DNA of 64,000 nucleotides. Source: Chiloscyllium plagiosum. Lineage: Eukaryota. The stretch lies in assembly GCF_004010195.1 (NCBI RefSeq), contig NC_057752.1, positions 12,156,923-12,220,922 on the forward strand, given 5' to 3'. This document shows positions 1 to 58,808 of the stretch, piece by piece. The position numbers were made by a program, and so were the translations under genes. The notes below the pieces were generated by a model. That model saw only the letters and a list, made by a program, of their open reading frames with translations, was not told the DNA's origin and did no database searches. Each line of letters starts with the position of its first letter. Within the stretch, counting starts at the first letter, position 1.

Positions 1-372
1 CTGGACTTCAATATCATTCCTTAGGCTGCTATTCAAAGGTTGTGAAATCACATCCCACCAGGGTCGATTTTCAGTTCAATTTTTTGAAAAAACCTTCTTC
101 TCTGTTTTTGGTTGCTGTTCAGTCCCACGCTCCTGGAGAAGGAGCACGCAGTGTCCACCAACACCCTGGAGCTGTTCAGGGAGAGGTGGGCACCGCAGGG
201 AGTGGCTACTCTACTTTGGACAGGGAAATAATCCCTGCCCTCCCCTTCACTGTTTGATCACACAGCATTGCCCTTTGATGTGAAGGGCACTGCTTGCCAC
301 TGGCCACTCGGGTGTTTCCTTTCTTCCTGGTAGTGGAAATTGAATAAAGGTTCATACACCTTGATAAAAAAA
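1..372 (+). mobile_element. tRNA-Arg-headed / Tx1-tailed non-autonomous retroelement, copy 1 (cut by window start, internal deletion)
   Basis: 1-66 matches the 3' part of an intron-containing tRNA-Arg(TCT) (ggacttc..intron..attcaaaggttgtg..atcccaccagggtcg). The rest matches the Tx1 ORF2 C-terminus/3'UTR seen at 6830-7300 and 39260-39673, ending in AATAAA and an A-tract. Confidence 0.75.
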
Positions 373-509
373 ATAAACAAACAGGAGTGTCAGATATCCT
401 GTTCACTCTGAGAGCTGGCTCTGAGGGAGCTGGATTAGTGTCAAGGACTTCCACGTGTAAATAAAGGGTGACTTGGTGACGGGATACCGGCCTCTGCAGA
501 GGTATTTCA
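373..509 (+). mobile_element. 3' half of short Gypsy-type LTR (from TATA region to terminal CA)
   Basis: Homologous to LTR copies at 20719-20944 (-), 31891-32043 and 58588-58808; contains AATAAA and ends in ..tttCA. Confidence 0.75.
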
Positions 510-1657
510 CTCCCCATAACCCTTTGATCCCATTACTCATCAAGAATCCATCTATCTCTGTCTTAAATACACTCAATGACTTGGCCTCCACAGTCCCCTG
601 TGGCAATGATTTTCACAGATTCTCCACCTTCTGGCTGAAGAAATTCCTCCTCATCTCAGCTCTGAAGGGTCGTCCCTTCACTCTGAGGCTGTGCCCTCTC
701 CTGCTGGTGAAAATACCTTCTCCACATCCACTCTATCCAGGCCTCTCAGTATTCTGACAGGTTTCAGTCAGATCCCCCCTCATCCATCTAAACTCCATCG
801 CGTACAGACCCAGAGTCCTCCACCGCTCCTCATATGACAAGCCCTTTGTCCCCGGGATCTTCCTTATAAACTTCGTCTAGGCCCTCTCCAAGGCCAGCAC
901 ATCCTTCCTTAGATACAAGGCCCTAAACTGCTCACAATATTCCAAATGGAGTCTGACCAGAGCCCTATTCAGCCTCAATAGTACATCTCTGCTCTTGGAT
1001 TCTAGCCCTCTTGAAATAACTCTTAACATTGCATTAGCCTTCCTAATTGCCAACTAAACCTGCACATTAACCTTAAGAGAATCCTGAACTCGACTTCCAA
1101 GTCCCTTTGTGCTTCAGATTTCTGAAGCCTTTGCCCCATTCAGAAAATAGTCTACATCTCTATTCTTCCTACCAAACAACATAACCTCACACTTTCCTAC
1201 ATTGTATTCCATCTGCCACTCCTTTGTCTGCTCTCTCAGCCTGTCCAAGTCCTTTTGCAACTCCCCACTTCCTCAACTCTATCTGTCATAGAGTCATAGA
1301 GATGTACAGCATGGAAACAGACCCTTCGGTCCAACCTGTCCATGCCGACCAGATATCCCAACCCAATCTAGTCCCACCTGCCAGCACCCGGCCCATATCC
1401 CTCCAAATCCTTCCTATTCATATACCCATCCAAATGCCTCTTAAATGTTGCAATTGTACCAGCCTTCACCACTTCCTCTGGCAGCTTGTTCCATACACGT
1501 GCCACCCTCTGTGTGAAAATGTTGCCCCTGAGGTCTCTTTTATTTCTTTTCCCTCTCACCTTAAACCTATGCACCTCTAGTTCTGGTCTCCCCGATCCCA
1601 GGGAAAAGACTTTGCCTATTTACCCTATCCATGCCCCTCATAATTTTGTAAACCTCT
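510..1657 (-). mobile_element. CR1 LINE 3' fragments (two adjacent copies; second 1285-1657)
   Basis: Minus-strand ORF2 C-terminal motifs (FTQRVARVWNKLPEEVV, FKTEIDGFL) and a short-repeat tail. Confidence 0.85.
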
Positions 1658-6670: not shown

Positions 6671-6733
6671 TAGTTCATGTACTCCGCAAAAAAAAGCAAG
6701 AAAAAGAAAAAAAAAGAACAGAAGCGTAAGCGC

Positions 6734-7440
6734 GGCTCTGTGACGCAATTGAAAGCGCACTGGACTTCAATATCATTCCTCAGGCTGCTTTTCAAAAGTT
6801 GTGAATTCACATCCCACCAGATTTTCAGTTAAATTTTTCTTAAAAACTTTCTTCCCTGTTTTGGGTTGCTGTTCAGTCCCACGCTCCTGATTTTTGGGTA
6901 CCTGGTATGGAGGGGGGAGGGCAAGTCTGAAGACCTCCTCGTGGGTCTGTTCCTGGGCCTGGCCAAACTGGCCATCAACAGGTCCAGGCAGCGGGCCGTG
7001 GAGGGGGTCGTTAGGGCTGACTGCCTGTTCCTCTTCCGCGGGTATGTCAGAGACCGGGTGTTTCTGGAGAAGGAGCACGCGGTGTCCACCAACACCCTTA
7101 AGCTGTTCAGGGAGAGGTGGGCACCGCAGGGAGTGGAGTGCTTTATTTCCCCCTCCAACTCTATTTTAATCCCTGCCGTCCCTTTCACTGTTTGATCACG
7201 CAGCACTGCCTTTGATGTAAAGGGCATTGCTTGTCACTGGCCACCCGGGTATCTCTTTTTTTCATGGTGGTGGAAATTGAATAAAGATTTGTACACCTTG
7301 TGTCTTTCGCTGTGTCTGACACCTGCACACACACAACATGGGTGCTGGGGAAAAATAAGCATTACTGCAGTTAGGCAGTAATGTGGACAAAAAAAAATTT
7401 TAAAAATAAGCTAGAGTGTCAGACATTCTGTTAAAAAAAA
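6734..7440 (+). mobile_element. tRNA-Arg-headed / Tx1-tailed non-autonomous retroelement, copy 2
   Basis: 6734-6820 is a degenerate intron-containing tRNA-Arg(TCT). It is followed by the Tx1 ORF2 C-terminus (LLVGLFLGLAKLAINRSRQR), a 3'UTR, an A-tract, a short LTR-derived piece and a second A-tract. Confidence 0.8.
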
Positions 7441-19164: not shown

Positions 19165-20718
19165 TTCTGCACTTGATACTGCAAAAAAGAAGATACAAGA
19201 ATGTATTTTAATGTTTTACACTAAAATTATGAATTATCAATAAAATGTAGTTCTAAGTCAGAGTATCTTTAATAATAAAGTGCACTGCACTTGGGGCACT
19301 GTCCTGTGTCTTGCTGGTAGCTGCTAAAATACAGCTCCCTTTATAGGAATAATCCAGAGATGATTTAGGAAAGATCTTCACTACACTTAGCATGACCATT
19401 CTGATGGCTGGAAAATTCTGAGGCTTCTTTGCAGGGCCAATTCGAGTTGGAAACCATACTGTCCCAAATAGAATAAGTATTCAGTTACAGATATTCTGAT
19501 TAGCCTGTCAGAGATATTCCAACATCCCTCTGGAGCAGGTGGAATTTGAATCTATGCGTTCGAATTCAGAGGGGATTACTGTATCAGAACATTCTCAGAA
19601 TCACTGAATTATTACAATGCTGAAGACCATTCAGCCCTCTGTATTATGTGGACTGACTGAATGAGCATCACAGTGCCATTCTGCTGCCTTCTTCTATAGA
19701 CCTGTACCTTTTTTGTTCAATTGTCTAACGCCCTTTGAATACGTAGATGTAATCTCCACACTCTCAAGAAGTGCATTCCAGAACTTAACCTCTTGATGTG
19801 TGATACAATTTTTTTTTCATATCATTGTTGTTTCTTTTATGAACTACTTTAAATCTATGCTCTCTGGTTCTTGACCCTATTTACTTTGCCCAAACGTCTC
19901 ATGCTTTTGAACACTTCAATCGGATCTCCACAGCCTTCTCTTCAAGGAGCATAATCCCAACTTCATTTTTTATTCATTTGCAGAATATGGGTTTCATCGG
20001 ACCAGCATTCATTTACCAGCTCTGGTTGCCTGCTGAGGGAGGGAATTCCAGGATTTTGACTCAGCTTCACTGAGGAAATGGAAATATATTTGCAAGGCAC
20101 AATCATGACTGGCTTGGAGGGGAAAGTGCAGGTGGTGGTGTTTCCACGATTCTGCTTCCCTTGTCTTTCAGATGGTAGTGGTAATGCGTTTGAAAGGTGC
20201 TGTCTTTGGAAATTTCTGTAATTCTTCATGATGAAATTCCGTATTCCTGGAACCATTCTCTTAAATCTCATTTGAACTCTCTCTAATGCCCCACATCAAG
20301 CCTAAAGCGTGGTGCTCAGAACTGGATGCAAATTGCCAGCTGAGGCTGAACTAGTGCCTTCCATAAGTTCAGCGTAATCTCTTTGTCTTGTAGTCAATGT
20401 ATCTACCAATAAAGCCTCAGACACTGCATGGTTAATTAACTGCTCTCTCAACCTGTCCTGCTACTTCTAATGACTTTTGCATATATACACCCAGGTCTCT
20501 ATGTTCTTACACCTTTTTTTACAGTAGTACCTTTTATATTATATTGTCTCTCCTTGTACTCTCAACCAAAATGTGTCATCACCCTAAACCTCCCCCCAAT
20601 CCCTCAATTATCTGGCAATACCTAATTTTGGGAGCTTGGCTGGAATATTCCCATAGGCAAGTGATAGAATTGGAGTTGGGAAAACACACTGTCAAAAGGC
20701 AGCTTAAATAAAGAAGAG

Positions 20719-20944
20719 TAAAGTAACCCCACAGAGGCTGGTATCCCATCACCAAATCATCTTTTATTTACATATGGACAGTCCTTGACTTTCACACTGC
20801 CTCTTCAGAGTCAGATCTTACAGTGTCAGTATCTCTAACACTCCTGTTAGAATCTGTCAGCCAGGGCTCCCTGATTGGATCAGATTAATAGAATATGAAT
20901 TCCCTGATTGGGGCTAAGAGATCCACCTGGCTGACCTCATTATA
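20719..20944 (-). mobile_element. Solo Gypsy-type LTR, uninterrupted and degenerate
   Basis: Reverse complement aligns with both halves of the LTR (caatcagggagccctggctgacaga, aacaggagtgttagag, gtaaataaaag, gataccagcctctg). Confidence 0.75.
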
Positions 20945-23904
20945 ATCATTGCAAATAAGTTTTCTTGAGTCTCTCGCATTTTAGATTTCCAAGCGTGATG
21001 TTGATACTTTCATACAGCAGGACTGAGAAACATAAGAAATACATTCTTTCAAGTGAACTTAAAGTTCAGATACCTTTTCCTTAGTTACATGAGGGTTTGT
21101 CCTCGTTTAAGGCAAGTGGGTTCTCTTTTGGTAGGCATGTGGATGCTCACAGTTTCATTGTGTGCCCATTACTGTTTCTTCATTTGCTTTGTCCATTTAT
21201 TTTTCTCTTCCCTTAGGTCATTCTACAATATTCCTTACCACACAGGTTTAGGGTGATGACACATTTTGGTTGAGAGTACAAGGAGAGACAATATAATATT
21301 CCACATTAATCCTTGGACAATTCCTATGCTTAGTGCTCAGTACCAAGGATGAAGGCTTGACAGTTTGTTCAAATTCATAAATGTCTCTTTGTAAGCAGTG
21401 GCTAGCCATGTTAGTCACTGTTTACCACCTAATTTGTTACTGCTTAACGTTGTTGCAATGTATAAACAGGTCCAAGCCTTTTAATTAACAGCACAGCAAT
21501 CTACACAATCTGAGACACGTAGGATCTGTTTAATTCCATCTGTTGCAAACTGATCTTAGGAAGATTGAGGACATACACTGAAAACTAATATGGAAGGTAC
21601 ATCATATCGTGGAGTGCTAATGATCTAACTTGCATGACATGAATAACTCATGAGGGCAAAGTTTAAATGACTTATACAGATGCACAGGAGAAGCATGAAG
21701 AAATTGATCTCTAGCTCCCATATTTATGACTTTCCCTATGTCAACAGCTGGTACTGAATATTTGCCCCACAGAGGCAGGAAAAAGTGGGGAGTCTCTACC
21801 CAGACCAGCAGGAAGTATGTTTGCTGAAGCAGTGTGGAGGTTCATGGATTGAGAATGGAGAAGACCATCCAACTCTTGTGCATCCAGCAGGGCTCAGGCC
21901 TTTGAGCACATGAACTCCTCAGTAGACAGTAGACAATTTCTTGGAGAGCCATATGCAGCAGCCTGCAAAGTGCAGGCAGGAACTCCATATGATTCCCACA
22001 GGATGGGTGCTATGTTACGTAGCCTTGAATGGGCAGTGCATGAGCAGAGAGATCTTTGGAGTCGATGCCAGTTGTACCTCATCTGCTCCACTCCTCCAGC
22101 CATCTGCAGGGTTAGGAAAGAGATAAGGATATCATGGAGGATGATGTGGCACCCCTCAAAGGACACCATCATCATCCACTCACTGGAGCCCAGTGACAGA
22201 GTCTAGCCTTACATTGGCACCAGTGCAGCAGCTTCTGGACATGCCATCGGGGGCACCTTCAGGGTGAGGATGGCTGCCATGTGAAGCTCAGCCACAGGCA
22301 CATTTTTTGAGGCCACAAAGAGGAAGCATCATGTAAAAATGGCCAAGAATGGAGGCCACTGAATCAGGCAGATTACTGGGTGGGTCACTGAGGTGTGTTC
22401 TTACAGTTTCTACCTACTGTTTTCCTCTGTTTGTATTAATTATAACGTGGAGGTAGTCTGAGACACCTATGCTAAAACACGTGGAATGCACAACCAGGAA
22501 TCTCTAATCACTTACTATCATGGAAGGAGCACCTCCTGACTCCTCAAAGCCTGTCCACTTTGAGGCACAAGTCAGGAGTCTAATAGAATACTTCCCACTT
22601 GCCTGGATGGGGGCAGCTCCAACAACACTCAAAGAAATTGACTGGGAAACTGAAGATTCTGATGGGCAGAATAAAGCAACCCACTTGATGGGTACTATAT
22701 TCACTAGAATTTTCTGCCATCCTCTCTTGTGAGAGGACAAACCTTTGCTGCAATGTACTTCCACAGATATCAGTTTCATTCCAGCATCTTAAACATTCTT
22801 CACACCTGTCTTGAGGTGGATGACGGCAGACTATGAAACTAAAGAAATATCACAGACATGTCTCACTGATAACTCCAGGGCTTTGAGTTGATCTTTCCCG
22901 TTCCTAACAGATAGGCATTGTAGCATGCTCACAGTTGCTCCAGCGAAGATCAGGACAGGAAATGTCATGTACAAAGGTTTCTGTAGGGAACATTTCAACT
23001 GCATCTGGAGAGGCATGAATGAATGATATGTAACAGAGCCAGCCGGCTGGTGAGGGCGGGGGCGTGTCTTTTCTACACCAGCAACTTGCAAGAACTAAAC
23101 AAGATGGGGTCTTAATTTCTTCAACTCAGAAGCATGATTATTCAAACACCACAGAACTCATGTCAGTATATCACATGCAAATTGGTTTCCATTTCTCTCT
23201 ATTCTCTCCTGAGGTGCAAGATCAAAATGGAACACATTAGAACAGCAACTCAGAGCTGAACCTTTAATTCCATGACAACTCCTCAAAGCAGGAGATTCTG
23301 GAAATGTATTGTTGAAAGCAATGTTACTATTTAGTGCCTTGTTGTTGCATGCTAAAATGTAAAGATTTTGTTTCACTAAATTATTTCACAAAATTTGGTT
23401 CTATATTTGAGTCAAAGTATCCATGATACCAGCTCAATAATGTAATCCCTTGCTTCAGAAATTTCTAAAATTGGAGAAATTGGTAAAGAGTGAGAGAGCA
23501 GAAATGCTGCAAGTAACCAGATGGGACAAACTATATATAGCATCAAGTTTGCTTATAAAAGTGTGATGAAAGCCCATATTGTTCATTGATTACATAACTT
23601 TCTGGCCAATGTGTAAGTCAATGTATGCGCTGTGAATCCTGATTCAATACGGATAGGAAGGATTTAAGAGGAATATTGCCCAAATACTGACAAATGGTAC
23701 TAGGTCAGATTGTGATGTCAGTCAGCGCAGACAAGTTGGACCAGAGAGTCTGCTTTTGTGCTGTATGACTTGATAGAAGCTATAGCAGAATCATGTTCTA
23801 GATGCCTGATGTCTTGTGTGGGATGGAAGAAAAACTGTTACACTGGTATACTTTACTGCTGCAATAAATGTCACAATTTTTAAAAAAATGGCTCTTTACC
23901 GTTC

Positions 23905-30692: not shown

Positions 30693-31890
30693 CTATAACA
30701 TCATTCAGTCCCAAATCCTATGAAATCCTTCTGCTCCACCAATTCTGGTTTCTTGCATATCCCAAATTTAATCACCCTACCTTCATTGGCACGGGCCCTC
30801 AGCTCTGGAATTCCCTAAACCTCTTTACCTCTCACTTTCTTTAAGAAGCTCCTTAAAAGATACCCATGACCAGCTTTTTGTCTTCTGCCCTGATATCTCT
30901 TTTGGTGGTTTGATATTTCAATTCTGTTTGAGAATGCTTCTGTGAAGTGCCTTCAAACACCTTTTTGTGAATGCATGATATAAACACAATTTGTTCTTAA
31001 TATTGCCTGTCAAATCAGATCCAAATCAGGCAGTGAGACAGAAACAAAAACATTTTTTATAAAGAAAAGCCAGCCTGTTTAGACAAGTTACAACACCTCT
31101 CTGAGGCCATGGCATCCTCAGGGATGCTACCATCGCGCCACCAGACCCACAAGAGACCCTTTCTTAAATTTGAAAGCAAGCTGTTTGGATACTTTATGAT
31201 GCACCTCTGCAGCAGGTGGGACTTCAACCTGGAGCTTCTGGTCCAGATGTAGGGACAGTTCAGCCCTCAGGATTGGGTGATGAGCTCCCTCAGACCCACT
31301 TCAATATGAGAGGGTAAACAGTTCAAGATCCAGCCTTCAGGTATCTCTGAAAATGAAACTAAAACCGGACTAAACTACTAAAGTGAAGAAAAAAACTGAG
31401 GTAAAAGGGCCACGAATCCCCAACATATAGATACCCATTCCCTACTGGAAAATGAAGAACTTTGTGCAGAAAGTACACTCCCAGATTTTTATTCTCAAGT
31501 GAATGAGTACACGGGGAAAAGGAAGAATAAATGCAATGAAATCCATATGAATTCATTCATATTAGTTTACAAAATCATTACTCATAGCATGGTCAAACAA
31601 AACTTGAGTGTTGCTGGAAAAAGACACATTTTATCCAAGCTTTCTGTCTTAAATTCATTTCGCAAGAATATATATTCAAGGGGAAACCAAATATTTATAC
31701 TGCCTGAGTGTGTTGATTGGTTGGCAGGTGGACTCTGATTGGTAAAAAGATTTGCCATAGGGAATGCATCCACTAATGCTGACTAACATTTAACAGCCAG
31801 GTTTTGTGAATATTACAAAAAAAAGGCATGTGGCCTCTGATTGGTCAGGACATTACCCTGAGAAATGAACCAGTGAAAGGCTGTTGTGAT

Positions 31891-32043
31891 TGTAACGAGG
31901 CCAGCCAGATGGAACTCACAAAATATGAGTTCTCTGATTGCGGCTATTCACCTGATGCAATCAGGGAGCCCTGGCTGACAGATATAAACTGAAATGTCAG
32001 AGGTTCTGTTCACTCTGAGAGCTGGAGCAGTGTCCAGGACTCT
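31891..32043 (+). mobile_element. 5' part of short Gypsy-type LTR heading a retroelement array
   Basis: Starts TGTAACGAGG, aligns to 58588-58808; TATAAA at 31983-31988. Confidence 0.8.
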
Positions 32044-33999
32044 CAAATTTGTGTTAGAGAGGGGGACTGACTCCAAGCTGACTGCCCACATCCAGTTTTT
32101 GGATTAGTGGTGCTGGAAGAGCACAGCAGTTCAGGCAGCATCCGAGGAGCAGCAAAATCGACGTTTCGGGCAAAAGCCCTTCATCAGGAATAAAGGCAGA
32201 GAGCCTGAAGCGTGGAGAGATAAGCTAGAGGACGGTGGGGGTGGGTAAAATGTAGCATGGAGTACAATGGGTGAGTGGGGGAGCGGGGATGAAGGTGAGT
32301 ACGCTCCTGTTGGTTTCTGGAGGAAATCTGATTCCTGAACTGGCTGAACCATATAGCCAGTTTATTAACTGGCATTCCTTTTTATTGAGGACTGACTTCT
32401 AAACTGATTTAAACAGTCAGTGTTACAGGTGTAACTCTGTTCTCATTAGGGGATTGTTGTTTCACTGGCTGGTTACAGCCTGTGTGTTACTCCTTTCTCT
32501 CCTTTTTACTTTTGAAAAAAGGACAATGTGGATTTTATGGTAGGGCTTAGCCCTTGGACTCTAGTTTCCTTTGTTTTTTTGTATGTGTCTTCATTGTTTT
32601 TGGTGTTTAGACTGAGCCCTTGTGGAAGACATACATTTTACCAGGGGAGCTGTTCCTGTGGGGAGGCCGAGCCCTGGGACTGGGCCTCTGAAGATTGAAC
32701 ACCTGTCTGTGTACTGGGAGGTGAGCACTTGCTGTATCCTGGAGTTTTGGGGAAGATTTTGCCTTCAGGAGTGGACCAAAAACCCCTGTGTTAACTGCAC
32801 CTTTAAAATGTACTGTTCCTGTGAGTGGCCCTGGCTCTCCAAAGATGTGCCAGGACTCTATGGAGGCTGAACACCTGTGTGCTGTGGGGTGTGCATTTGC
32901 TGCCTTTGGGAGCGGACTCTGCAGTTTGGAGTGGACTCCATTTTGGACAATGCATGCTGTAAACTGGAGTGGACTCTGTTCCTGAGAATGGACTCTGTAT
33001 TCTAAAGACTCTATATCTGGATTCTGTGAGTACCAGAAAGGACTCTGTGTTTTTTGATAATTAACTGTATCGCATTGTTTGTTGCGTCTACCACCTGCAC
33101 TGTCTCGCATGCCCCTCGGTCTGGCAGGCCTTACTGTGAGCTGGGGAGCTCATGGGTCGTCCTGAAAGCTGTCACCCCGAGAGCCGGAGGGTGGGTAGGT
33201 CATCCTGTGAACCTGAAGGTTGGTAGGCTGTCCCAAAAGCCGGAGGGTGGGTAGGCCACCCTGATGCCAGTTGCCCCGAGAGCCAGATGGTGGGTAGGCC
33301 GTTCTGAGCGCTGTCGTCCCGAGAAGGGGTGATCAGGACGGGCTGTCCTAGAGGTGGTCGGAAGGTGTGTCAGGGTGGTCCACTGGCCAGACGGCACATC
33401 GGGGTGGGTGAGAGCCCAATGGTACATAGGGGCAGACCGAGAGCCAAAGGTGGGTAGCTGTCCTCAGTGCTGTCACCCCGGGCAGGTACCGGGGCGGGCT
33501 GCCCCAGAGGTGGTCGAAAGCTGCTGAGGGTGGTTAGTGAAGCCGGAAGGTGGGTAGGCCGTCCTGACCACTGTCACCCCGGGCGCGTACCGGGGTGGGC
33601 TGTCCTAGAGGCAGTCGGAAGGTGTGTCAGGGCGGACCGAGAACTGGAAGGGGCATGGGGTGGACCGAGAGCCGGAAGATGTGTAGGAGTGGGCTGCCAT
33701 AGAGTGGTCGGAAGGTGGGAGGGACGGGGGCTTGCTGGGTGTGTATTGTATGCAGTTTGTTTTGTGACTGGATTGTCTTTTTATGTACAAATGCCATTGT
33801 TGCTGTCTTGTCATGCTTGAAACTGGGATTTGGGGTTTGTCCTCATTTCCCTGTAAACTGGTTGAACGGTACACAGTTTGGGGCATGGTTTTGCTGCTCC
33901 TCTCCCTTGTAGAATTGCTGTCTCTTGTATACAGCTGTAAATCTTGACTGTTTATATAAACTGTTTTGTAATTGTTTAATAAAATTTAAAAAACAAAAT
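32044..33999 (+). mobile_element. Non-coding non-autonomous element, array unit 1 (contains Penelope piece about 32096-32297 and GC-rich degenerate repeats about 33160-33720)
   Basis: 5' and 3' regions homologous to unit 2; ends in AATAAA plus A-rich tail; flanked by a 59-bp direct repeat of LTR sequence. Confidence 0.7.
32160..32187 (-). ncRNA. Minimal hammerhead ribozyme motif in Penelope repeat
   Basis: Minus strand reads CTGATGA-a-GGGC-tttt-GCCC-GAAA-CGTC. Confidence 0.6.
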
Positions 34000-34058
34000 T
34001 AAACTGAAATTTCAGAGGGTCTGTTCACTCTGAGAGCTGGAGCAGTGTCCAGAACTCT

Positions 34059-35826
34059 CAAATTTGTGTTAGAGAGGGGGACTGACTCCAAGCTGACTGC
34101 CCACATCCAGTGTGTACCGCTCCTGTTGGTTTCTGGAGGAAACCTGATTCCTGAACTGGCTGAACCATATAGCCAGTTTATTAACTGGCATTCCTTTTTA
34201 TTGAGGACTGACTTCTAAACTGATTTAAACAGTCAGTGTTACAGGTGTAACTCCGTTCTCATTAGTTACTCTTTTCCCTTCTCCTTTGAGAAAAGGATAA
34301 TGTTGATTTTGTGGCAGGGCTTAGCCCATGCACTCTGGTTTTCTTAGTTTCGAAGGTGTTTTCACTTTTTTGGCGTTTGGACTGGGCCTCTCTGAAAATA
34401 CGCCTTTCCAGATGAGCTGTTCCTGTATGGTTAGGCCTCTGTAAAGACTGAATATCTGTGTGTGCAGGGAGGTGAGCAATTGCTGCCTTTGCGAATGGAC
34501 CAAACCCTTGTGAGTTAACTACGCCTTTACAGTGTACTGAGTTCCTGGGAGTGGGCCTGGTTCACCAAGGATGGGCCAGGACTCCATGGAGACTGAACAC
34601 CTGTATGTGCTGCAGGGAGTGCATTCGCTGCCTTCGGATGTGGACTCTGTCTTGGTACTGGAAACTGTATTGCGAGGGCTTTGTGAATTCTGTTAATCTA
34701 TGTGGATTTTGTAATTAATTGTGTTCAAGTGCAGGCCAGAGTGGGCTGGTCAGTACGTGGAGTGGCTGGGAGCTGGAGGGTTGATGACCAGCCTTGGGGA
34801 AAGCAGGCTGGGGTGGAGGTGTCTGTTAGCACGCAGGGTGGCTGGTGGCTAGGCAGCCAAAAGCGTGCCTGTAGGAAAGCTGGGCAGGGGTGTGGCAGCC
34901 AATACACAGGCTGGCTGGAGGCCAAAGGGTTGATGACCAGCCTGGAGGAAAGCAGGCCAGGAGGAGCCTGTCGGTATGTGGGGTGGGCGGGGCAAGGCAA
35001 CTGATAGCATCCTCTCAGGAAAGCTGGTATACGGCAGGCTGGTCAATATGTGGGGAGGTTGAGCCAAGCAGCAGACGGCAGCCTGTAGGAAGGCCGACCG
35101 AGGGAGGACTGGTCAGTGCACAAGGTGGCTGGGAGTTAGACAGCCAATAGCCGGTCTGAAGGTACGCTGGCCCGGAGAAAGGGTCAGTCAGTACACAGGG
35201 AGGCCGGGTGCTGTAAGACCAACAGGCTGACTGTACAAAAGCAAGTCGGGGTGTTTTGGTTAGTATGTGGGGTGACCAGGAGCCAGTGACTGATGACTAT
35301 GCCGAAAGAAAGTTGGCTGGGGAGGGTCAGTCTGTAAGCAGGGCGGCCAGAGACAGAGGCTGACAAACAGCTCGTAGGAAAGCGACCTGGGGTAGTCCGG
35401 TCAGCAGGCGAGATGACGGGGAGCTGGGTGGTTAATCGACCAGCCTGGAGAAAAGTGGGCCTGGGGAGGGTCAGTCAGTTCGCAGGGCGGCCAGAGACCT
35501 GAAGGCTGACAACTGTCCTGCAGGAAGGCTAGCCAAGGATGGTCTGATCAGTATGTGGTGTGGACCGGTGTCCGGTATCTTTATTTTAGCTATATTGGGT
35601 CTGTGCTCTATGTACTGTTTGTCTTTTGATTGCACTGTCTTGTCTGTGTTTGTTACTGTTACCTTTGACTGAAAGTGGAACTTGAGGTTTGTCCTCATCT
35701 CCTTGAAAACTGGTTGAATGGTGGGGTTTGGCTTTGCGGCCCCTTCCGTGTATATAGTGGGATTTTTGTGAACTGCTGCTTTTGGTTTATTGTTAACTGT
35801 ATTTTGTACTGTTTAATAAAATAAAA
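34059..35826 (+). mobile_element. Non-coding non-autonomous element, array unit 2
   Basis: Same 5' start caaatttgtgttagagagggggactgactcc as unit 1, shared 3' motif gtttgtcctcat..aaactggttgaa, AATAAA/A tail; different central GC-rich repeat. Confidence 0.7.
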
Positions 35827-35898
35827 ATAAACCGAAGTGTCAGTGGTTCTGCTCACTCAGTTGGCTCTGAGTGAGCTGGTTCAGTGTCCAAGACACAC

Positions 35899-38800
35899 CA
35901 TTTTGTGTCAGGGAGGGGACTAACTATGTGCTGGCTGCCCATATACAGTCTGCACTGTGAAGAGGGGGAGAGTTTTTTTCTTTTTCCCCTTGTCCAGGGA
36001 AGACTTTTACCTTCAGTTTTTCTTTCGTTTTGTTGTTTTGTGCTTTTTCATTTTATTTGAACTGGTTGGCTGCACAGAGCCACCACCATTGTTGCTGCTG
36101 CCTGGGCCCCACAGACACCTGGGCCTGCCTCCCCTACTGCTGCCTGGGCCTCGCCAACACCTGGGACTGTTGCTGCTGTTACTGGCTGGGCCTAACCCAT
36201 CTGTTGTTGCCAGGGCCCACCAATACCTAGGACTGCTGCTGCTACTACCCTAGCCTCCATGTCGTGACCGCCATCACCTAAGGCCCACACAGAGGAAGAA
36301 CACCTGGGGTTGCCCAGCAGCACACTATGGTGAGCCCAAGAGCACCAGGTCCTAGCCGCACCTATACCAGGATAGCCGCTACCTTCGGCTCGGCTGCACC
36401 AGCCGCAGCTGTGAATACTTCCCCTTCAGGCACCTAACTAAACACCTGATGGTTAAGGCCTATCCTCACCCAAACATGACCATAGAGGCTTGCAGTAAGG
36501 CCATGGCTAGTGTGGTCGGCCTGCTAGCATAGTCTGGCCAGACACTCACCCTCCTCCCCGCCAGAGGATGAGGAGGCACAAGCAGCCCTTGGCATGGACC
36601 CGCTGTGGGGCTTTTGATGGCATATTGGGCTGAGTGGGGGAGTGCAGAGTGGGTATTGTGGTGGCACCTGTGACTGCCGGTGTGGGCTGGGCACCCTTCT
36701 GGGTGGGGCAGTTTTTTTCTAATGTGCCCCACCTCATGGCACAGGTGACACCGCACACTGTCCAGAAGATGCGGTAGGCCACGCCCTTTGTGGAGGAGGG
36801 TAAAGGAGCCCTCAGTGACCTCCTCCTGGGCCAGGCAAATAAACACCTGGCACCGGAAGGAGTACACGTGCTTGAGGGCGGGATTCTTCAGACCGAACAG
36901 GAGCGGTTGCACACCTGACTGAACTTCCCCCAGTGCTTGAAGGTGGGGGGAGAAGGAACTCAGGGCGGGACATTAGAGATCATGATCCGCTGGGCCGTGA
37001 CCTCCAATGGGTGGACAGGGAGGAATGTCCTGCCCACAGTAAGCCCCCTCTGCATGGCCACATGGACCGCCTGCTCGGTCTTCAGGAAAGATATGTCGCT
37101 GCAGCCGGATGTACGGGAAAGCCAATGGCTAGCAGGCCGACCACACTAGCCATGGCCTTACGGCAAGCCTCCATGGTCATGTTTGGGTGAGGATAGGCCT
37201 TAACCACCGGGATTCATTTTGTAAGTTCTGGGCCGGCTGGAGAAGGAAGCAGGGAGGCTTCCCCTCCCTGAGGCTATGGTGGGACGTGTGCAAGGCTCAC
37301 GTCCGCATTTTCTGTCAGGAGTATGCGAGGGGTTCAACAAACAAGCGGAAATCCTGGATCAAGGAGTTGGAGAAGGAGGTATTAACCTGGAGTCACGTCG
37401 CGGTGAGCATGATGTGGGTCTGGGCGGGGGGGTGTGCTGCAGCTCAGCCCGGAGGATGCCAGAAGGTTTAACACTCCTGTCATTTTAGAGGACCTGACCG
37501 GCACCCTCTACTGGCTCTCGAGGGGCAAGTCCCCGGTGCTGGATGGGCTGACTGTGGAGTTCTTCAGAGTGTTCAGGGACGTCCTGGAGAGTGACTACGC
37601 ACAGGTCCTGGGGGAGTGTCTCACTGCTGGAGAGCTGCCCCTTTCGTGGTGCATGGCGGTCATTGTCCTGCTACTGACGGGAACCTTTGTTCTTTGAAGA
37701 ACTGGTGTCCGGTCTTCTTCCTCTGCACAGACTACAAAATTTTCACCAGGGCGTTGTCCTCTTACCTGGCTTCCATGCTGGCCCACATGATTCACCCGGA
37801 CCAGTCCTACTCAGTCCCAGGCCAGAGGATACACGACAACATCCACCTGGTCTGGGACCTGATCCATCTGTCGACGGGCTGGTCTGCCGAGCGCCTTCCT
37901 GTCTCTCGACCAGGAGAAGGCGTTCGACAGGGTCGATCACGAGTACCTGCTCGGGACTCTGTAGGCATTCGGGTTCGGGACGCAGTTCGTCGCCCGGATC
38001 CGACTTTTGTACACTGTCGCAGAGTGTCTGGTTAAAGTTAACGGGTCCCTGACGGCGCGCCTTCACTTCGGGAGAGGAGTGCATCAAGGCTGCCCCCTGT
38101 CCGGCCAGCTGTATTCCCTGTGCGTGCAGCCTTTACTGCGCCTCTTGCGGAGGAGGTTGTCGGGGCTGGTTCTGCGCGGCGCGGGCACGGGGGTGGTCCT
38201 CTCGGCCTACGCTTTCACCGACCCGGCTGACCTGGGGAGGATGTGTGAGTGCCAGGCCGTGTACTTTGGTCCCTCCTCCTGGCTTTGTCGCTGACATCCG
38301 GAGAACATTGGTTCACTTCTTCTTCTGAGACAGAAAGATGCACTGGGTCGCTGCGCAGGTTCTGAGTCTCCCTATTGAGGTGGGTGGTCAGTCGCTGGCG
38401 TGTGTTTGCAACCAGGTGGTAACTTTCCGCCTTCAGACCTTGCAGCGATACCTTTATGATGAACCTCCTTCTAGGTGGTGCACCCTAGGAACGTATATTT
38501 TCCACCAAGTGCATAACCTCAACCACAACGCGCAACTCCTGTTCATCGACTGTGACGGTTTGGAGGTCGCTCTCAGGACGCTGCCTATCTTTAACCAGGA
38601 CCTGATCACAGTCTGGAACATGGTTGAATCGCATCGTACCTACCCTCCAGCAGGAGTAGCGGCTGTCATCAGGGAGCCATTGCTCAGGAATCCGAACCTC
38701 CGTACTCGCGGGTTTGTGTGGCTGTCAGAAAGGAAGGCTGGGCTGGGTAGGGACATAGTGGCAGGGCAGGACTGCCATTCGACGCCTTAAACCAACGGTG

Positions 38801-39673
38801 CTCGGACCCAACATCATGTATCCAGTTGGAGGATGCTCAGGTGTGCAGTGGAATCCCATCTACACTTAACCCTGCCCTGATGGAATTTCACATTGTTCCC
38901 AAGTTCCCGTACATCCCCTAGGAGCCTGTGCCCCACAACCTAAGCCGCCTCCGGAATTTTAGTTTTGCCCCCTTTGAGGACATAAAACGGTGAGCTCTGT
39001 ATCGACTGCTACTGCACACTGTCCACCCAATTCCCCTCATCCCCCATTTGCCACCGGGCGGTGGGGATCCCCAGTGGAGGGCTCTCTACGCGAGAGTCTT
39101 CCCCCTCTCTCTTGGGGATCTGGGGTGGAGGGTGCTGCACGCAGCAGTCCCCTGCAACCGCAGATTGCGGTGGTTCACGGACTCCCAGCCCAACTGCTTG
39201 TCGGTGGTGCTGTGGAGTCTGTAGACCATGTATATATTTAATTTTCTTAAAGATTTTCTCCTGTTTTTGGTTGCACTTCAGTCCCACGCTCCTGATCTTT
39301 GGGCACCCTGTGCGGTGGAGGGAGGGCAGGTCTGAAGACCTCCTCGTGGGTCTGCTCCTGGGCCTGGCCAAACTGGCCACCAACAGGTCCAGGCAGCGGG
39401 CCGTGGAGGGGGTCGTTAAGGCCGACTGCCTGCCCCTCTTCCGCGGTTACGTTAGAGCCCGGGTGTCCTTGGAGAAGGAGCACGCGGCGTCGACCAACAC
39501 CCTGGAGTTGTTCAGGGAGAGGTGGGCGCCGCAGGGAGTGGAGTGCATCATTTCTCCCTCCAACTCTATTTTGATTTAGTCCCCACCCACCCCTTCACTG
39601 TTTTGATCACACAGCACTGTCCCTTGCTGTGAAGGGCAGTGTTTGTCACTGCCCACCCGGGTGTTTTCCTATC
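35899..39673 (+). mobile_element. Tx1-clade (L1 group) LINE, decayed and rearranged, array unit 3
   Basis: ORF1 zinc knuckle (CHLCHEVGHI) in an inverted block. ORF2: WWDVCK, GKSPVLDGLTVEFF, DYKIF, HPDQSY, QEKAFDRV, GVHQGCPLSGQLY and C-terminal LLLGLAKLA. The 3'UTR runs into a gap. Confidence 0.85.
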
Positions 39674-39963
39674 NNNNNNNNNNNNNNNNNNNNNNNNNNN
39701 NNNNNNNNNNNNNNNNNNNNNNNNNNNNNNNNNNNNNNNNNNNNNNNNNNNNNNNNNNNNNNNNNNNNNNNNNNNNNNNNNNNNNNNNNNNNNNNNNNNN
39801 NNNNNNNNNNNNNNNNNNNNNNNNNNNNNNNNCACTACATGGCAAGCCTGACTGATAATCCGAAATTGGTTGACAGCATAATTCCTCACATTTTTAGGAT
39901 TATCCAGCAAGGATAAGGATTAGCATTATAGGCTAATAAATGAAATGTTAAAAACATAAATAA

Positions 39964-40987
39964 ACATTCTTGGCACCATGGAAAAGGTTGTGGAAATACT
40001 GTTCAGCAAAGACTGTTTTTGATAAACGTGCAACAGTTAAACAATGATTCAAGGAGCACACCTGTGTATAAACCTGGAGAAATGGGAGAGGATTAGACCT
40101 GAAGACTTACATTGCACCGTTAATGCTGATAAATGTTAAATGATACATTTTGGGAGGGAGAGTGAGATGACAAAGTAAATGCGAAATAGCAAAGTTGGAA
40201 AAAATAGTGTATCGATAAATGGGCTTCAGAAACACAATTTCAAACAGAGAGGGCACAAGTTGATAAGGATGTGGTATCCTCAATTTTATAACTCTCGATG
40301 CAAGAATACCAGAGCAAGAAATAATAAAATTAACCCTGCACAAATCATTGGTCAGACCAAAGCCTAAGTATGAAGGATCACAATAAAAGCTGGGAATTTT
40401 TAATTTAACAGAGAGGATATCTGGGAGACAGGTTCACAAACTTGAGGAATTTTGACAAGGTAAATAAGGTAAGGTAAATCTCCACTTTCCTCAGCACGCG
40501 CAGTACCTCTGCACGTAAATATTACCTTAAAAGATGCTATGGATTAGCTACCAGCTAATTGCTGAAGTGTGCACCCAGCTGCTTAATGCTTTCCTCAGCC
40601 AATCCAAAAAGGCCACATAAAACATGCACAACATGCAAACTCATTCAAGGTCACAGGCCTGCCGACCAAACAAGGACTGGAGAACTTAAGAGAAGGCTTG
40701 TATTTGTATGGGCAGTCTTCATGCTGGATTGGGAAAATCAATTTGTTTACAAAGCCCACTGTACAATCATGAAAGCGCAAAGAGTCATCAAAATGCAGGT
40801 TACACAATACTGTTCTGAAGGTGTGCAGGTTTACATTCTTGGCACCATGGAAAAGGTTGTGGAAATACTGTTCAGCAAAGACTGTTTTTGATAAACGTGC
40901 AACAGTTAAACAATGATTCAAGGAGCACACCTGTGTATAAACCTGGAGAAATGGGAGAGGATTAGACCTGAAGACTTACATTGCACC
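39964..40987 (+). repeat. 155-bp direct duplication (39964-40118 and 40833-40987)
   Basis: acattcttggcaccatgg...acttacattgcacc occurs twice, apparently identical. Confidence 0.9.
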
Positions 40988-41719
40988 ATCAACATACGAT
41001 AAACACCCCATATGAAAAGCATTCCAAGAACATATAGCCAAAAGACCAGTCAATTTATAATTCCACACCTGTGGAAATAACCACAGGCAACTATGTCTCT
41101 GCAGAATCAACTCTCAAGTGACAACTATGGAACTAGGATAATCATCTTCAGGGATTTAGTTACGGCTGTGACAAGTTAGATCATTTTCACATCACAGAGA
41201 CAAGGATTTTCTGTTATTTCTGACTACAGAATTGTGCTTGTGTCTTTAGAATCTAATATTCTGTGAATAAACAGAAAACGTATTTCATGCCTCTGATCAT
41301 GCAGAAATGCCACACTATTTAAATTGTTTCTGGACAACCTGAAAGTTAACCTTTTTGCCGTGTGTAGTGAAGCAAAGCATAACACGACATGTGGCCCACA
41401 CAATTCTTAGTATAGAAGGAATGAAATACAAAGTATTTGACCGCAGCACATTATTAACAGCGAAAGAATGCATGAACAGTTTACAAATTATGAGGAAGAG
41501 CTGCATCCGGTCAACGTTGCCTACATACTTCAAGTTGCAAGTCTATCTAAACTGCAATCAATTTTCCTTCCATGATTACCTGAATCAAGTCAGCAATTGT
41601 CAAAGGATTCAGCTAAATTTGTATTTATTTCTCGAGTCCATCCCAAGAAGCATTGTATTAACAGTCAAGACATCAAAATGGGAAGAAATCATTTGGAGGT
41701 AAAACTACACCCTCTCATG

Positions 41720-42405
41720 ATTGACCCCTCAACCAAGGGGGAACAGCAGCTCTCTATTCACCCTGTCTGAACCCTCAATCTTATTCACCTCAATCATGTC
41801 CCTCCTCAGTCTTCTCTGCTCTAAAAACAACAATCCAAATCTATCAAGTCTCCCCTTATAGTTCAATTTCTCCATCCCAGGTAACACCCTGGTGAACCTC
41901 CTCTGAACCCCCCTCTGCTGCGATCGCATCCTTCCTGTAGTGAGGTGACCCGACCTGCACACAGTGCTCCAGCTGGGGCCTGACCAATGCTCTGTACAAC
42001 TCTGGTATTATCTCTTTGCTCGTATATTCTGCGCCATGACTGATGAAAGCAAATGTCTCACATGTGCTCTTAACTCTCCTATTCAAGTGGTCTTCCAACT
42101 TCAGAGATCTATGAATAATTACCTCAAGACCCCTCTGTTCCTCTGAGCTGCCCCAGTCTCCTGCCATTCATTAAATATTCCCTCAACTTGTTTCTTCTTC
42201 CAAAGTGCATCACCTCTCATTTATTAGGGTAAAATAGCATCTGCCACTGGTCTGCCCATCTGACCAAGCCATCTATATCTTCCCGTAACCTACAACCATC
42301 TTCTTCATCATTAACCACTCTACCAACCTTGGTGTCATCAGCAAATTTGCTTAACATTCCACCCACATTTTCATCTAAATCATTAATATATATGAAACAA
42401 ATAAA
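41720..42405 (-). mobile_element. CR1 3' fragment
   Basis: SKFADDTKVG, LVRPQLEHC. Confidence 0.85.
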
Positions 42406-43184
42406 CATCTCTCTCTCCAATGAGTTGCAGTAACTGAAATAACTCACCTATGAAATGTACACAGGGTTGCACTTCAGGCTCTTTCAGTTGGAAGGCAGCA
42501 AAAAAGTATTATGGTACATTACATTTGTGCTAACTTCCACTTCAAATCATTCCAGCGGTTTTTACAATCATCAATAGAGGAAGAAGTAACTGAATTCAGA
42601 TTACTGAAGATCATCGACCAAAATCAAAACCGCACTGCCAAAGACAGCACTGCAGTTTCATAAATGTACCACTAGCCTCTCAAGCTAGAGTGCATAGGGA
42701 CTCAAGTAGTTGGGGGAAGGAGCACTGGGAAGAAAGGTGTTACAGTGACGTTCTGGAAAATATTCACCTGGGAAAATGCAAATATGAACACAACTGGCTT
42801 GCCACATGCTGCATAGGTTAAAATGTATTTTCCCTTACTAATGATTGACTAACTCTAACTTCTGGGTGTTTTAGTTGTGACATTATGCACAGAAAGACAA
42901 ACTTTGAATTTGAAACAAATCTGAAAGATTTGTGAAGTGGCACATTTTGGTCATGAATATTCTACGTGCATCCATGTGCATTAGTCAATAATTTCTAAGA
43001 GACCACATATTTTTCATTTTTGGGACTATAAACTAAAATGGAAGTTGGACTGTGATATAACTGAAATACCAGGAGAAATTTACAACTTGAAAATCAAATA
43101 TGGGATATTGTTGAGCTGTGCAATACAATGTTGCTTTTTGGAAGGAGGGAGAATTTGAGACTGAAAGGCACCGAGAATCTTTTG

Positions 43185-43656
43185 AGTCTGCATTCATCCC
43201 TTGTGGTTGGAGGGTTCCTAGGCGGAAGATGAGGCGCTCTTCCTCCAGGCGTCGTGTTGCCAGGGTCTGGCGATGGAGGAGGCCAAGGACCTGCATGTCC
43301 TTGGCGGAGTGGGAAGGGGAGTTAAAAGTGTTCAGCCAAGGGCGGTTGGGTTGGTTGGTGCGGGTGTCCCAGAGGTGTTCTCTGAAACTTTTTAAGAACA
43401 GTAGAGGTCCTTAAACAGAAGAGTGCCTCTTCTTCCGCCTAGGAACCCTCCAACCACAAGGGATGAATGCAGACTCAAAAGATTCTCGGTGCCTTTCAGT
43501 CTCAAATTCTCCCTCCTACTCTCCTCATTCCTGAAGAAGGGCTCATGCCCGAAACGTCGATTCTCCTGCTCCTTGGATGCTGCCTGACCTGCTGCGCTTT
43601 TCCAGCAACACATTTTTCAGCTCTGATCTCCAGCATCTGCAGTCCTCACTTTCTCC
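43185..43656. mobile_element. Penelope-like remnants: ORF C-terminus (-, about 43185-43390) and pseudo-LTR (+, about 43510-43656)
   Basis: RRLEEERLIFRLGTLQPQGMN is the typical end of a Penelope GIY-YIG ORF; pseudo-LTR carries a hammerhead core. Confidence 0.75.
43529..43560 (+). ncRNA. Minimal hammerhead ribozyme motif
   Basis: CTGAAGA-a-GGGC-tcat-GCCC-GAAA-CGTC; palindromic ACGT stem III; weak stem I. Confidence 0.6.
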
Positions 43657-43719
43657 GAGATCTAATAAGTGTCTTGTACAAGTTCAACATCCCCTCCCTG
43701 TTCTTGTACTCTATGCCCT

Positions 43720-44035
43720 GGGCAGCATGGTGGCTCAATGGTTAGCACTGCTGCCTCACAGCGCCAGGGACCCGGGTTCAATTCCCAGCTCGGGCAACTG
43801 TTTGTGTGGAGTTTGCGCGTTCTCCCCATGTCTGCGTGGGTTTCCTCCAGGTGCTCCGGTTTCCTCCCACAGTCCAAAGATGTGCAGGTTAGGTGAATTG
43901 GTCATGCTAAATTGCCCGTAGTGTTACGAGCATTAGGCGAATGGGTCTGGGTGGGTTACTCTTCGGAGGGTCAGTGTGAACTTGTTGGGCCAAAGGGCCT
44001 GTTTCCACACTGTAGGGAATCTAATCTAATCTCAT
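43720..44035 (+). mobile_element. HE1-type V-SINE, near full length
   Basis: A box tggctcaatgg, B box ggttcaattcc, V-domain, CR1-like tail ending (aatct)n. Confidence 0.85.
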
Positions 44036-56905: not shown

Positions 56906-57149
56906 CATAAGGATTGAATTCTGGACACTTCTAGAGCCAGACTGCTTTCAAGTGGAATCCTAGCCAGATTCCACCATTAAATTGGGTAATAGCCAAGTTG
57001 GGTTGAGAGGATTAACCTACTTACTTGAGTGGTCTTATTTTAGTTGCTACATGCAATAAAGTTTAAATTGTTGTTTCAGCATTTGATGGTCTTTGAGGTT
57101 GTTTAATAAGTAGCTGAATTAAAGGTAACTTGTAGTGAGTTTACCTACA

Positions 57150-58808
57150 ACACTGACTGTTCCATTAGGGGTACCACCTGGTAATGGAAAGCAGTCATGA
57201 CACTGAATTTTCTGAACATGCTACCGGTCACAGCTAACATTTTAGACTCTGGACACAAAGATCCCATCCTTCCTAAAGTAAAATAATTGGTATTAATTGG
57301 GGAAGCAAAAGGGTCGTCGCAGCTCGAATTAAAGCCTTTTTGGACCTGAAGGGACCAGCTCACGATAGAGGATGGCATATTGTTATGGGGAGTAAGGCCA
57401 TTGTCAAATACTGGCTGAACTCCACTGGGGCCATCCAGAGATCTCAAAAATGAAGATGTTGGCAAGGAGTTATGTCTGATCACCAGCCTTGGATGCTGAC
57501 ATAGTGGCATTGGTGTAACAGTGCCCAGAGTGTCAACAAGGACAATAGTTACTGCCATCAGCTTCCCTGCATCCCTGGGAATGGCTGGGTAAACCTTAGA
57601 CTCAGTTGCATGTCGACTATGCAGGTCTTTTCATGGGTTCAATGTTCTTAGTCATTGTAGGTGCCTACTCAAAGTGGTTGGACATGTATAGGGTCCATGC
57701 ATCAAACACTGCAGCAACGAGAGGAAGTCACATGCATCTTTTGCAACAGACGGAGTCCCAGAGATATTGGTCACAGATAACTAAATAGGTATTGGCCATC
57801 GTTTACCAGCAGGGACTTTAATTACTTCTTAAAAGTCAAATGAGATTTGACATATTAGACAGTTCCATATCACTCATCATCCAATGACCTAGCAGAAAGC
57901 ACAGTCCAAACTTTGAAGGTTGAACTGAAGAAACAACCTATAGCCTCAACAGATACCAAGTTGTCATGGTTCTTGTTTGATTATGGAACCACCCCACATG
58001 CAATGACAGGGATAGCAGTGGCAGAGCTGCTAATGGGTAGAAGACTCCACCCTAGGTTAAGTCTGATCTTCCTGGACCTGAGGGTGGTGAAGCGGCATCA
58101 GAAACGTCAATGCCAGGCACAAGACTCCACCAAGTGAGACAAGTTGTTACAGGGGACAAAGTTTAGTGCAGGAATCATGTAAATGGGTAAGAAGCATGAT
58201 CAACATGAGATCTGGAGCAGTGACTTCTGATGGTTACATAGATGTGACTGCCCCGATGTGGACCATTTGAAATCTGGAGGAAAACCTGCCCTGTCCCTTG
58301 AAGCCTTCAGAAATACTTCAGTGAAACATTGATTCATCGTCTCCATCAAACGTTGAATTAGAGATGGACATGACAAAAGTAGCCACCTTGATGCTTCTGC
58401 CTCCGGAAGAAGGAAGTGAAAGTCTATTGAGACATTCCAGGTGCAAGAGGTGAACTGCCATTTGTTACCCGCCATGTTGGATTCCGATTTGGAGGAACCT
58501 GACCCGGTGGTAAAACAGCCTAGGAGCCTCTCAAAGGAATCGGATTGTCCGGTATCCGTGGACTCAGAGAGAAAGGGACGTAGGGACTGTAATGAGATCA
58601 GCCAGCTGGACCTTAGAGAATCAGAGTTCCCTGATTGGGACTGTTAATCTGATGCAATCAGGGAGACCTGGCTGACACAAAAGGATAAATGTCAGGGCTA
58701 TTGAACCGGAATGCCTGACTCAAGAGAGGCAGTGCTATTGTCAATGGCTATACACTTGTGAAGAAAGGTTGACTGGTGAATAATGCCAGCCTCAGAAGTG
58801 TTATATCA
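57150..58808 (+). mobile_element. Gypsy LTR retrotransposon 3' part: integrase remnant, PPT, 3' LTR (58588-58808)
   Basis: HVDYAGLFMGSMFLVIVGAYSKW, AELLMGRRL; purine tract agagagaaagggacgtagggac directly before TGTAATGAG...TATCA. Confidence 0.8.

Follow-up and report, generated by a model that had tools for sequence, protein, structure and literature searches.

Background

Preference for LTR retrotransposons has been published for two crocodilian Tx1 families, Tx1-8_Crp and Tx1-4_AMi (Kojima 2015, PMC4494074), contrary to the initial annotation of the DNA studied here, in which targeting of a Gypsy LTR was presented as not known to have been described. Tx1 homing to LTR elements is already known, and what is reported below is a variant of it and not a new principle. 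The type of LTR and the position within it are unnamed in the main text of PMC4494074, the supplements of which may show both; here a Gypsy LTR is entered at its TATA box in sense orientation, and the two cases are compared by description.

The Tx1-Mar and SINEU elements of crocodilians resemble the present system in that an autonomous Tx1 and non-autonomous partners, with no 3' end in common, use the same target. They too are often in tandem, with repeated 5' additions, and transcription from the flanking target has been proposed (PMC4494074). Their target is a Mariner DNA transposon, however, and not a Gypsy LTR, and SINEU are shorter than 500 bp with U1/U2 heads, whereas the partner found here is 1.8 kb long and has a head like the R region of the target LTR. 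Tx1L of Xenopus laevis, which inserts in Tx1D (as cited in PMC4494074), is likewise an APE-type LINE aimed at another transposon. The Tx1L target is a piggyBac-type DNA transposon, unlike the LTR here, and the sequence comparison with Tx1L covers the hairpin loop only (PDB 2v0r).

R2, which inserts in 28S rDNA, has no promoter of its own and its RNA carries target sequence, the cDNA of which has been proposed to anneal to the target and so to generate uniform 5' junctions (PMC3774820). This is similar to what is proposed below, although R2 relies on a restriction-like endonuclease, Pol I co-transcription and a ribozyme, in place of the APE endonuclease and predicted Pol II core promoter seen here, and has its homology upstream of the nick rather than downstream. 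Neither the LTR TATA-box site nor the 1.8-kb partner is named in the literature found, Repbase, Dfam and most subscription papers being outside the search.

Organisation of the array

The window, meaning the whole 64,000-nucleotide stretch of Chiloscyllium plagiosum DNA that was analysed, contains the 5' part of an LTR and three head-to-tail units, as initially annotated. Each unit stands behind an LTR segment that opens at the TATA box (31983/31985-32043, 34000-34058 and 35827-35897), and in each of the first two units the A-tail continues into this segment. The LTR itself starts at 31882, with TG, and not at 31891. Of the three Tx1 elements claimed, unit 3 is a Tx1-like LINE, although broken; units 1 and 2 have no LINE coding similarity. 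The LTR segment described as the same in all three cases is alike in the first two and clearly different in the third. An uninterrupted LTR, earlier placed at 20719-20944, and an integrase piece with an LTR, earlier given as the parent Gypsy at 57150-58808, are also present. The features are as follows.

31882..31982, plus strand: 5' part (U3) of a Gypsy LTR, starting with TG (from the sequence; 81% identical, in 93 bp, to the LTR that follows the integrase at 58585)
31983..31988, plus strand: TATA box and insertion site, where A-tails join (sequence and junction census)
31983..32043, plus strand: LTR segment 1 (leader), with the TATA box and a predicted initiator A at 32012 (+30, by motif prediction), ending before the LTR AATAAA
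32044..33999, plus strand: unit 1, non-autonomous and ORF-less, without coding similarity, with an LTR-like head, AATAAA at 33978 and an A-tail
32097..32294, no strand assigned: later insertion of another abundant repeat within unit 1 (gap in the unit 1/unit 2 alignment; 88% to 43527-43611)
34000..34058, plus strand: LTR segment 2, 97% like segment 1 and with the same internal deletion (sequence comparison)
34059..35826, plus strand: unit 2, of the same non-autonomous family as unit 1 (alignment, tblastn)
35827..35897, plus strand: LTR segment 3, of another variant that is ~72% like the first two segments (sequence comparison)
35898..39673, plus strand: unit 3, a decayed L1-group (Tx1-like) LINE (tblastn, domain searches)
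39674..39832, no strand: assembly gap (sequence) hiding the LINE tail and presumably also the right LTR half
20716..20949 (approximate ends), minus strand: uninterrupted LTR of the target family (sequence comparison)
57100..58808, plus strand: broken Gypsy integrase region with a purine tract and a 3' LTR (~58576-58808) (61% over 71 aa to the integrase stretch of locus L117)

Together with their leaders, units 1 and 2 are 97-98% alike over the first ~270 aligned bases and ~70-85% over the next 600. No LTR piece was found in 39831-44000, behind unit 3 and the gap.

Five LTR pieces are present in this 64 kb, compared with none in 184 kb from 19 other contigs, a local enrichment. Other repeats in the window are a tandem array of a 50-bp unit (2160-2585, 8.5 copies, 90% matches), which runs into a gap, and a perfect 56-bp inverted repeat around the uninterrupted LTR (20536-20591 and 21244-21299). 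A 155-bp perfect direct repeat (39964-40118 and 40833-40987) and a 100-bp inverted repeat of 98% identity (43143-43242 and 43418-43517) are possibly assembly artefacts.

The target LTR

The loci L110 and L121, in which both LTRs surround Gypsy-type coding remains, place the target in the Ty3/Gypsy group. Pfam matches are to rve in L121 (E 3e-9) and to RVT_1 in L162 (E 1e-10), and RT-like stretches precede the integrase, which is the Gypsy order; the window's own Gypsy piece gives a weak match (rve_3, E 0.08). The LTR contains CCAAT, a TATA box and, counting from the first T of that box, an initiator-like motif whose A falls at +30 and AATAAA at approximately +80. The initiator, assigned by its consensus, marks a predicted start site. 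A second LTR subfamily differs in R, and both subfamilies are targeted.

The LINE and its partner

Unit 3 has an ORF1 start (36311-36521), a reverse transcriptase (RT) region (37435-38265) and an ORF2 stop at 39579, its 3' UTR entering the gap. It is rearranged, with 36684-37211 inverted and the endonuclease part missing, and retains the RT; all five LINE ORF1/ORF2 relatives are matched by tblastn. Younger copies, 95-97% alike in ORF2, encode both APE endonuclease and RT. Pfam Exo_endo_phos and RVT_1 in loci L215/L216 show an ORF2 with an N-terminal APE endonuclease, as in the L1 group, and the PDB matches of the LINE proteins are all to L1 ORF2 or endonuclease. A putative CCHC-type ORF1 (C-x2-C-x4-H-x4-C) is seen in the translations of L216 and L217, though without a Pfam match. 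Poly(A) tail, 5' truncation and target duplication, which are expected of the Tx1/L1 group, are all present in the family. The closest proteins, ~50-58% identical, are turtle and sturgeon sequences that carry no family name, and the L1 chimera with the Tx1L hairpin loop (PDB 2v0r) scores 69 bits against 66.6 for plain L1, a weak difference. Since no named Tx1 sequence is among the protein relatives returned, the LINE is presumably of the Tx1 clade by its architecture.

Long open frames of up to 1771 aa were found, and in all three copies inspected they are inflated by assembly gaps. The three younger copies inspected run into gaps and carry frame breaks, and none was seen intact. Part of the element's own 3' UTR stands at the start of the young full-length copies at L216:1186-1420 and L217:800-930, and behind it is what is left of the LTR leader.

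Units 1 and 2 belong to an abundant protein-less family of 1.8 kb, the head of which resembles the R region of the LTR and for which 2493 candidate 3' ends were found. Neither unit has a tblastn match to the five LINE ORF1/ORF2 relatives, and ~50 bp of the head are in common with unit 3, the 3' ends being different. Because no 3' end is common to partner and LINE, it is from the shared site that the LINE is taken to carry the partner. The units are not SINEs, given their length of 1.8 kb (SINEs are below ~500 bp), the lack of an Rfam match in L031 or L134 and the lack of a tRNA in the window. Nor are they an internally deleted LINE or HAL1, as they have only the ~50 bp of head in common with the LINE and no tblastn match, or a TRIM or LARD, as they have AATAAA with an A-tail and many 5' truncations with short duplications. 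A different LINE family outside those sampled may be their parent. Some partner heads contain an inner copy of the CAAT-TATA core of the LTR, similar to tandem promoter monomers (L158 near 999, L170 near 992 and 3050, L049 near 2940). Partner copies that consist of the head alone (100-250 bp) and carry A-tails are also inserted at the site (L116:520-620 and L168:961-1200).

Targeting across the genome

Genome-wide counts refer to the 3.56-Gb genome. LTR pieces in the same orientation lie within 1.5 kb of 22 out of 27 tailed LINE top matches (29 were examined outside the window, two of them without a detected tail) and of 22 out of 29 partner top matches, these sets being the best matches and not a random sample. 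No LTR match was found in 184 kb of gap-free control DNA (20 arbitrary 10-kb stretches). The proposal that the TATA box of a Gypsy LTR is targeted, made from this window, is therefore supported across the genome, and LTR pieces adjoin most of the sampled ends, which are thus not mainly in unrelated flanks. A non-LTR family has been regarded as target-specific when one sequence type makes up >20% of its flanks (PMC4494074); the shares given here exceed this for LINE and partner.

The 3' ends followed by the LTR motif have also been counted. There are 1167 exact LINE 3' ends, of which 226 have the exact 8-nt site within 2-30 nt. A looser motif within ~60 nt gives 602 matches, with some ends counted twice, against 92 for a permuted motif. 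In a hand count on contig C1, the looser motif is present at 28 of the 47 LINE 3' ends (2/47 for the permuted motif) and absent from the remaining 19 (~40%). The motif count at the LINE tails of the top matches (15/27) is too low, the tail locator having begun too early in several rows, and the LTR count is relied upon instead. The motif with a single mismatch stands behind 8 of 188 ordinary A-runs. Seen from the LTR side, a search with U3 alone gives 29 top LTR matches, 9 of which have an interruption at the site. Neither motif nor LTR is present at 3/27 LINE and 5/29 partner top matches, which indicates a strong preference and no absolute rule. Genome-wide targeting of the LTR TATA-box site is very probably real.

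Independent insertions and copies of cellular RNAs

The set of truncated junctions was drawn from 89 U3 ends, 51 of which were flagged; 8 full type-2 heads were left out, leaving 43. In 25 of these 43, the junction ends 13-16 nt from the TATA start. The left duplication matches the right half of its own locus at 7.84 out of 10 positions and those of other loci at 6.65 (permutation p 0.0002), in the 25 of 36 cases that were usable (for the other 11 no U3 anchor or right half was found by the script). These locus-specific duplications show that the truncated copies inserted independently. Copies differ in dozens of truncation points and tail lengths, and in the proviruses L110 and L121 the array is in the 5' LTR only, the 3' LTR being clean.

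Cellular RNAs are found at the same site. A full 5S rRNA copy (Rfam E 2e-14; L015:809-1020) lies right behind the site motif within an array; joined to it are an LTR leader, which runs from the initiator position predicted, a short head of the LINE and an A-tail. At the end of another array, L002:1982-2346 is a processed copy of a ribosomal protein mRNA (Pfam Ribosomal_S8), again right behind the motif; it is presumably of RPS15A, with the pyrimidine-rich 5' start of that mRNA. The repeats at or next to the motif at L083:700, L108:1700 and L117:215-500 are presumably tRNA-headed and SINE-like. Duplication from a single ancestor cannot yield this combination of locus-specific duplications, arrays confined to the 5' LTR and copies of cellular RNAs at the same site, so that segmental duplication of one ancestral insertion fails as a general account.

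Two further junctions in the window involve the following copies.

1..511, plus strand: tRNA-headed truncated LINE copy with its tail at 372, then the right LTR half (373-511)
6712..7430, plus strand: sister of the copy above, which shares its 5' junction and is not within an LTR; ~25 bp of LTR segment follow

The copy at 1..511 begins ~50 bp upstream of the window, behind a U3. The initial annotation regarded the junctions at 372/373 and ~7407 as independent, which is correct in relation to the main array and not in relation to each other. The two copies have a duplication variant, a tRNA fragment and a truncation point in common, and their tRNA-headed 5' junction is matched over its full length in only these two of 29 genome matches. 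Sharing one unique 5' junction, they have one origin and count once.

The leader segment

The origin of the repeated 60-75 bp LTR segment was assessed in 13 type-1 full-length leaders from 10 loci, a set outside which the window's own leaders fall. With zone limits set after the alignments had been viewed, leader identity to the right half of the same locus is 0.80 against 0.70 for other loci at +6..16 (p 0.003) and 0.85 against 0.68 at +17..29 (p 0.0002). At +30..55 (p 0.18) and +56..77 (p 0.85) there is no own-locus excess, and the leaders resemble each other (0.83). A gap-free sliding comparison gives an own-versus-other difference of 0.13-0.19, which drops to 0.06 or less from +26..33 on. 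Single loci are target-like to +50 or beyond (L111, L112 and L118). From these alignments the segment appears to be target-derived to ~+29 and element-derived thereafter, with the switch at the predicted initiator. It is not one long target duplication, since the match to its own LTR ends near +30, nor is it wholly element, which the match up to ~+29 rules out. A switch at +29/+30 suggests transcription from the LTR promoter together with homology-guided joining of the 5' end, as proposed for R2.

Type-2 heads are element-derived from +13 in all five first-in-array cases with a visible right half in subfamily-1 LTRs (L160, L162, L168, L169 and L174), and this switch is 15 nt upstream of the type-2 predicted start. 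They do not fit a joining at the initiator and require read-through RNAs that include the TATA region, an added assumption; such RNAs could come from arrays and from heads that contain an inner copy of CAAT-TATA.

A near-identical 5' block, as in units 1 and 2, is not a general rule for array neighbours. Of the 10 other pairs listed, 3 show raised 5' identity, a level that is also found in some unrelated pairs. A 350-bp block in L114:520-900 is 100% identical to one in unit 2 of L115, at loci 4.9 Mb apart that are otherwise 88-98% alike, and may be due to conversion or assembly collapse.

Of two single-cell RNA runs with the same species label, one has 200 family-level reads (none 99% alike) and the other none, with no start or end peak and too few reads to place a start site. 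No RNA record among the listed sequences carries the elements.

Proposed mechanism and alternatives

The preferred reading, with a probability of roughly 0.7, is that a Tx1-like LINE and its partner sit at the LTR TATA box in the direction of the LTR, likely through the enzymes of the LINE, and that full-length copies likely use the LTR promoter. Judging from the junctions, the endonuclease would nick the TATA box on the bottom strand, and reverse transcription would be primed by the poly(A) tail. The duplication in truncated copies reaches 13-16 nt past the TATA box and rebuilds the insertion site, by which arrays may grow. The RNA of a full-length copy would begin at the LTR initiator (~+30) and would therefore carry LTR sequence at its 5' end. 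The cDNA end could then pair with the same sequence of the target LTR, so that TATA, initiator and leader are rebuilt in front of the incoming copy. The partner and some cellular RNAs would be carried in trans to the same site. In the window, unit 1 is likely to have been joined through pairing with a resident unit 2, which would explain the 270-bp block common to both.

It may be instead that targeting is real and the elements have their own promoter or depend upon upstream read-through, from arrays or from proviral RNA through the 3' LTR, with the leader a long duplication or passive carry-over and the LTR initiator unused. This is unlikely, though it is the alternative to be taken most seriously. 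The origin of type-2 heads from +13, the inner CAAT-TATA copy in some partner heads (L158 and L170), the young LINEs L216 and L217, which open with part of their own 3' UTR, and the private changes from +17 common to L114 and L115 unit 2 all fit with it. Against it, the own-versus-other signal stops at ~+30, the leader is kept in all but one of 18 type-1 rows, heads consist of LTR R-like sequence and one short L015 copy begins at the initiator position. The possibility that the LINE merely prefers a short A-rich motif, offered by the LTR and by earlier insertions, with the LTR a hot spot rather than a dedicated target, is improbable. Many 3' ends are indeed followed by the motif and then by another truncated unit instead of an LTR, and some have neither; yet LTR pieces flank 44 of the 56 tailed top matches and none of the 184 kb, free motifs behind ordinary A-runs are seldom used and heads are built from LTR sequence.

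Least probable, and very much so, is copying at the DNA level of one or a few old insertions, whether through replication of the Gypsy element, segmental duplication or gene conversion of LTRs. The common origin of the 372 and 7407 copies, the identical block in L114 and L115 and the near-identical block in units 1 and 2 are what such copying would generate, and it may still explain single blocks of this kind. For the system as a whole it is largely refuted by the variety of truncation points and tail lengths, the locus-specific duplications, the restriction of arrays to one of the two LTRs of a provirus, the targeting of both LTR subfamilies and the presence of cellular RNAs at the site.

The preferred reading can be extended, tentatively and at slightly less than even odds, to that of a promoter parasite. 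The LINE would cut LTR promoters between TATA and start, by homology rebuild the promoter in front of each full-length copy and have bred its non-coding partner from captured leaders. Thousands of LTRs would become landing pads, with carried RNAs, cellular mRNAs included, placed directly under a Pol II promoter, and the Gypsy provirus would lose its own transcript.

Implications

If true, the strategy of R2, with no promoter of its own, a target-derived leader and homology-guided 5' joining, would reach beyond rDNA, to a core promoter of Pol II that is dispersed. The elements would offer thousands of natural copies in which to test LINE 5'-end joining, a poorly understood step, as well as a naturally occurring APE endonuclease whose target is short and defined. 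They would also provide a route by which retrocopies are born beside a promoter and by which one transposon disables another.
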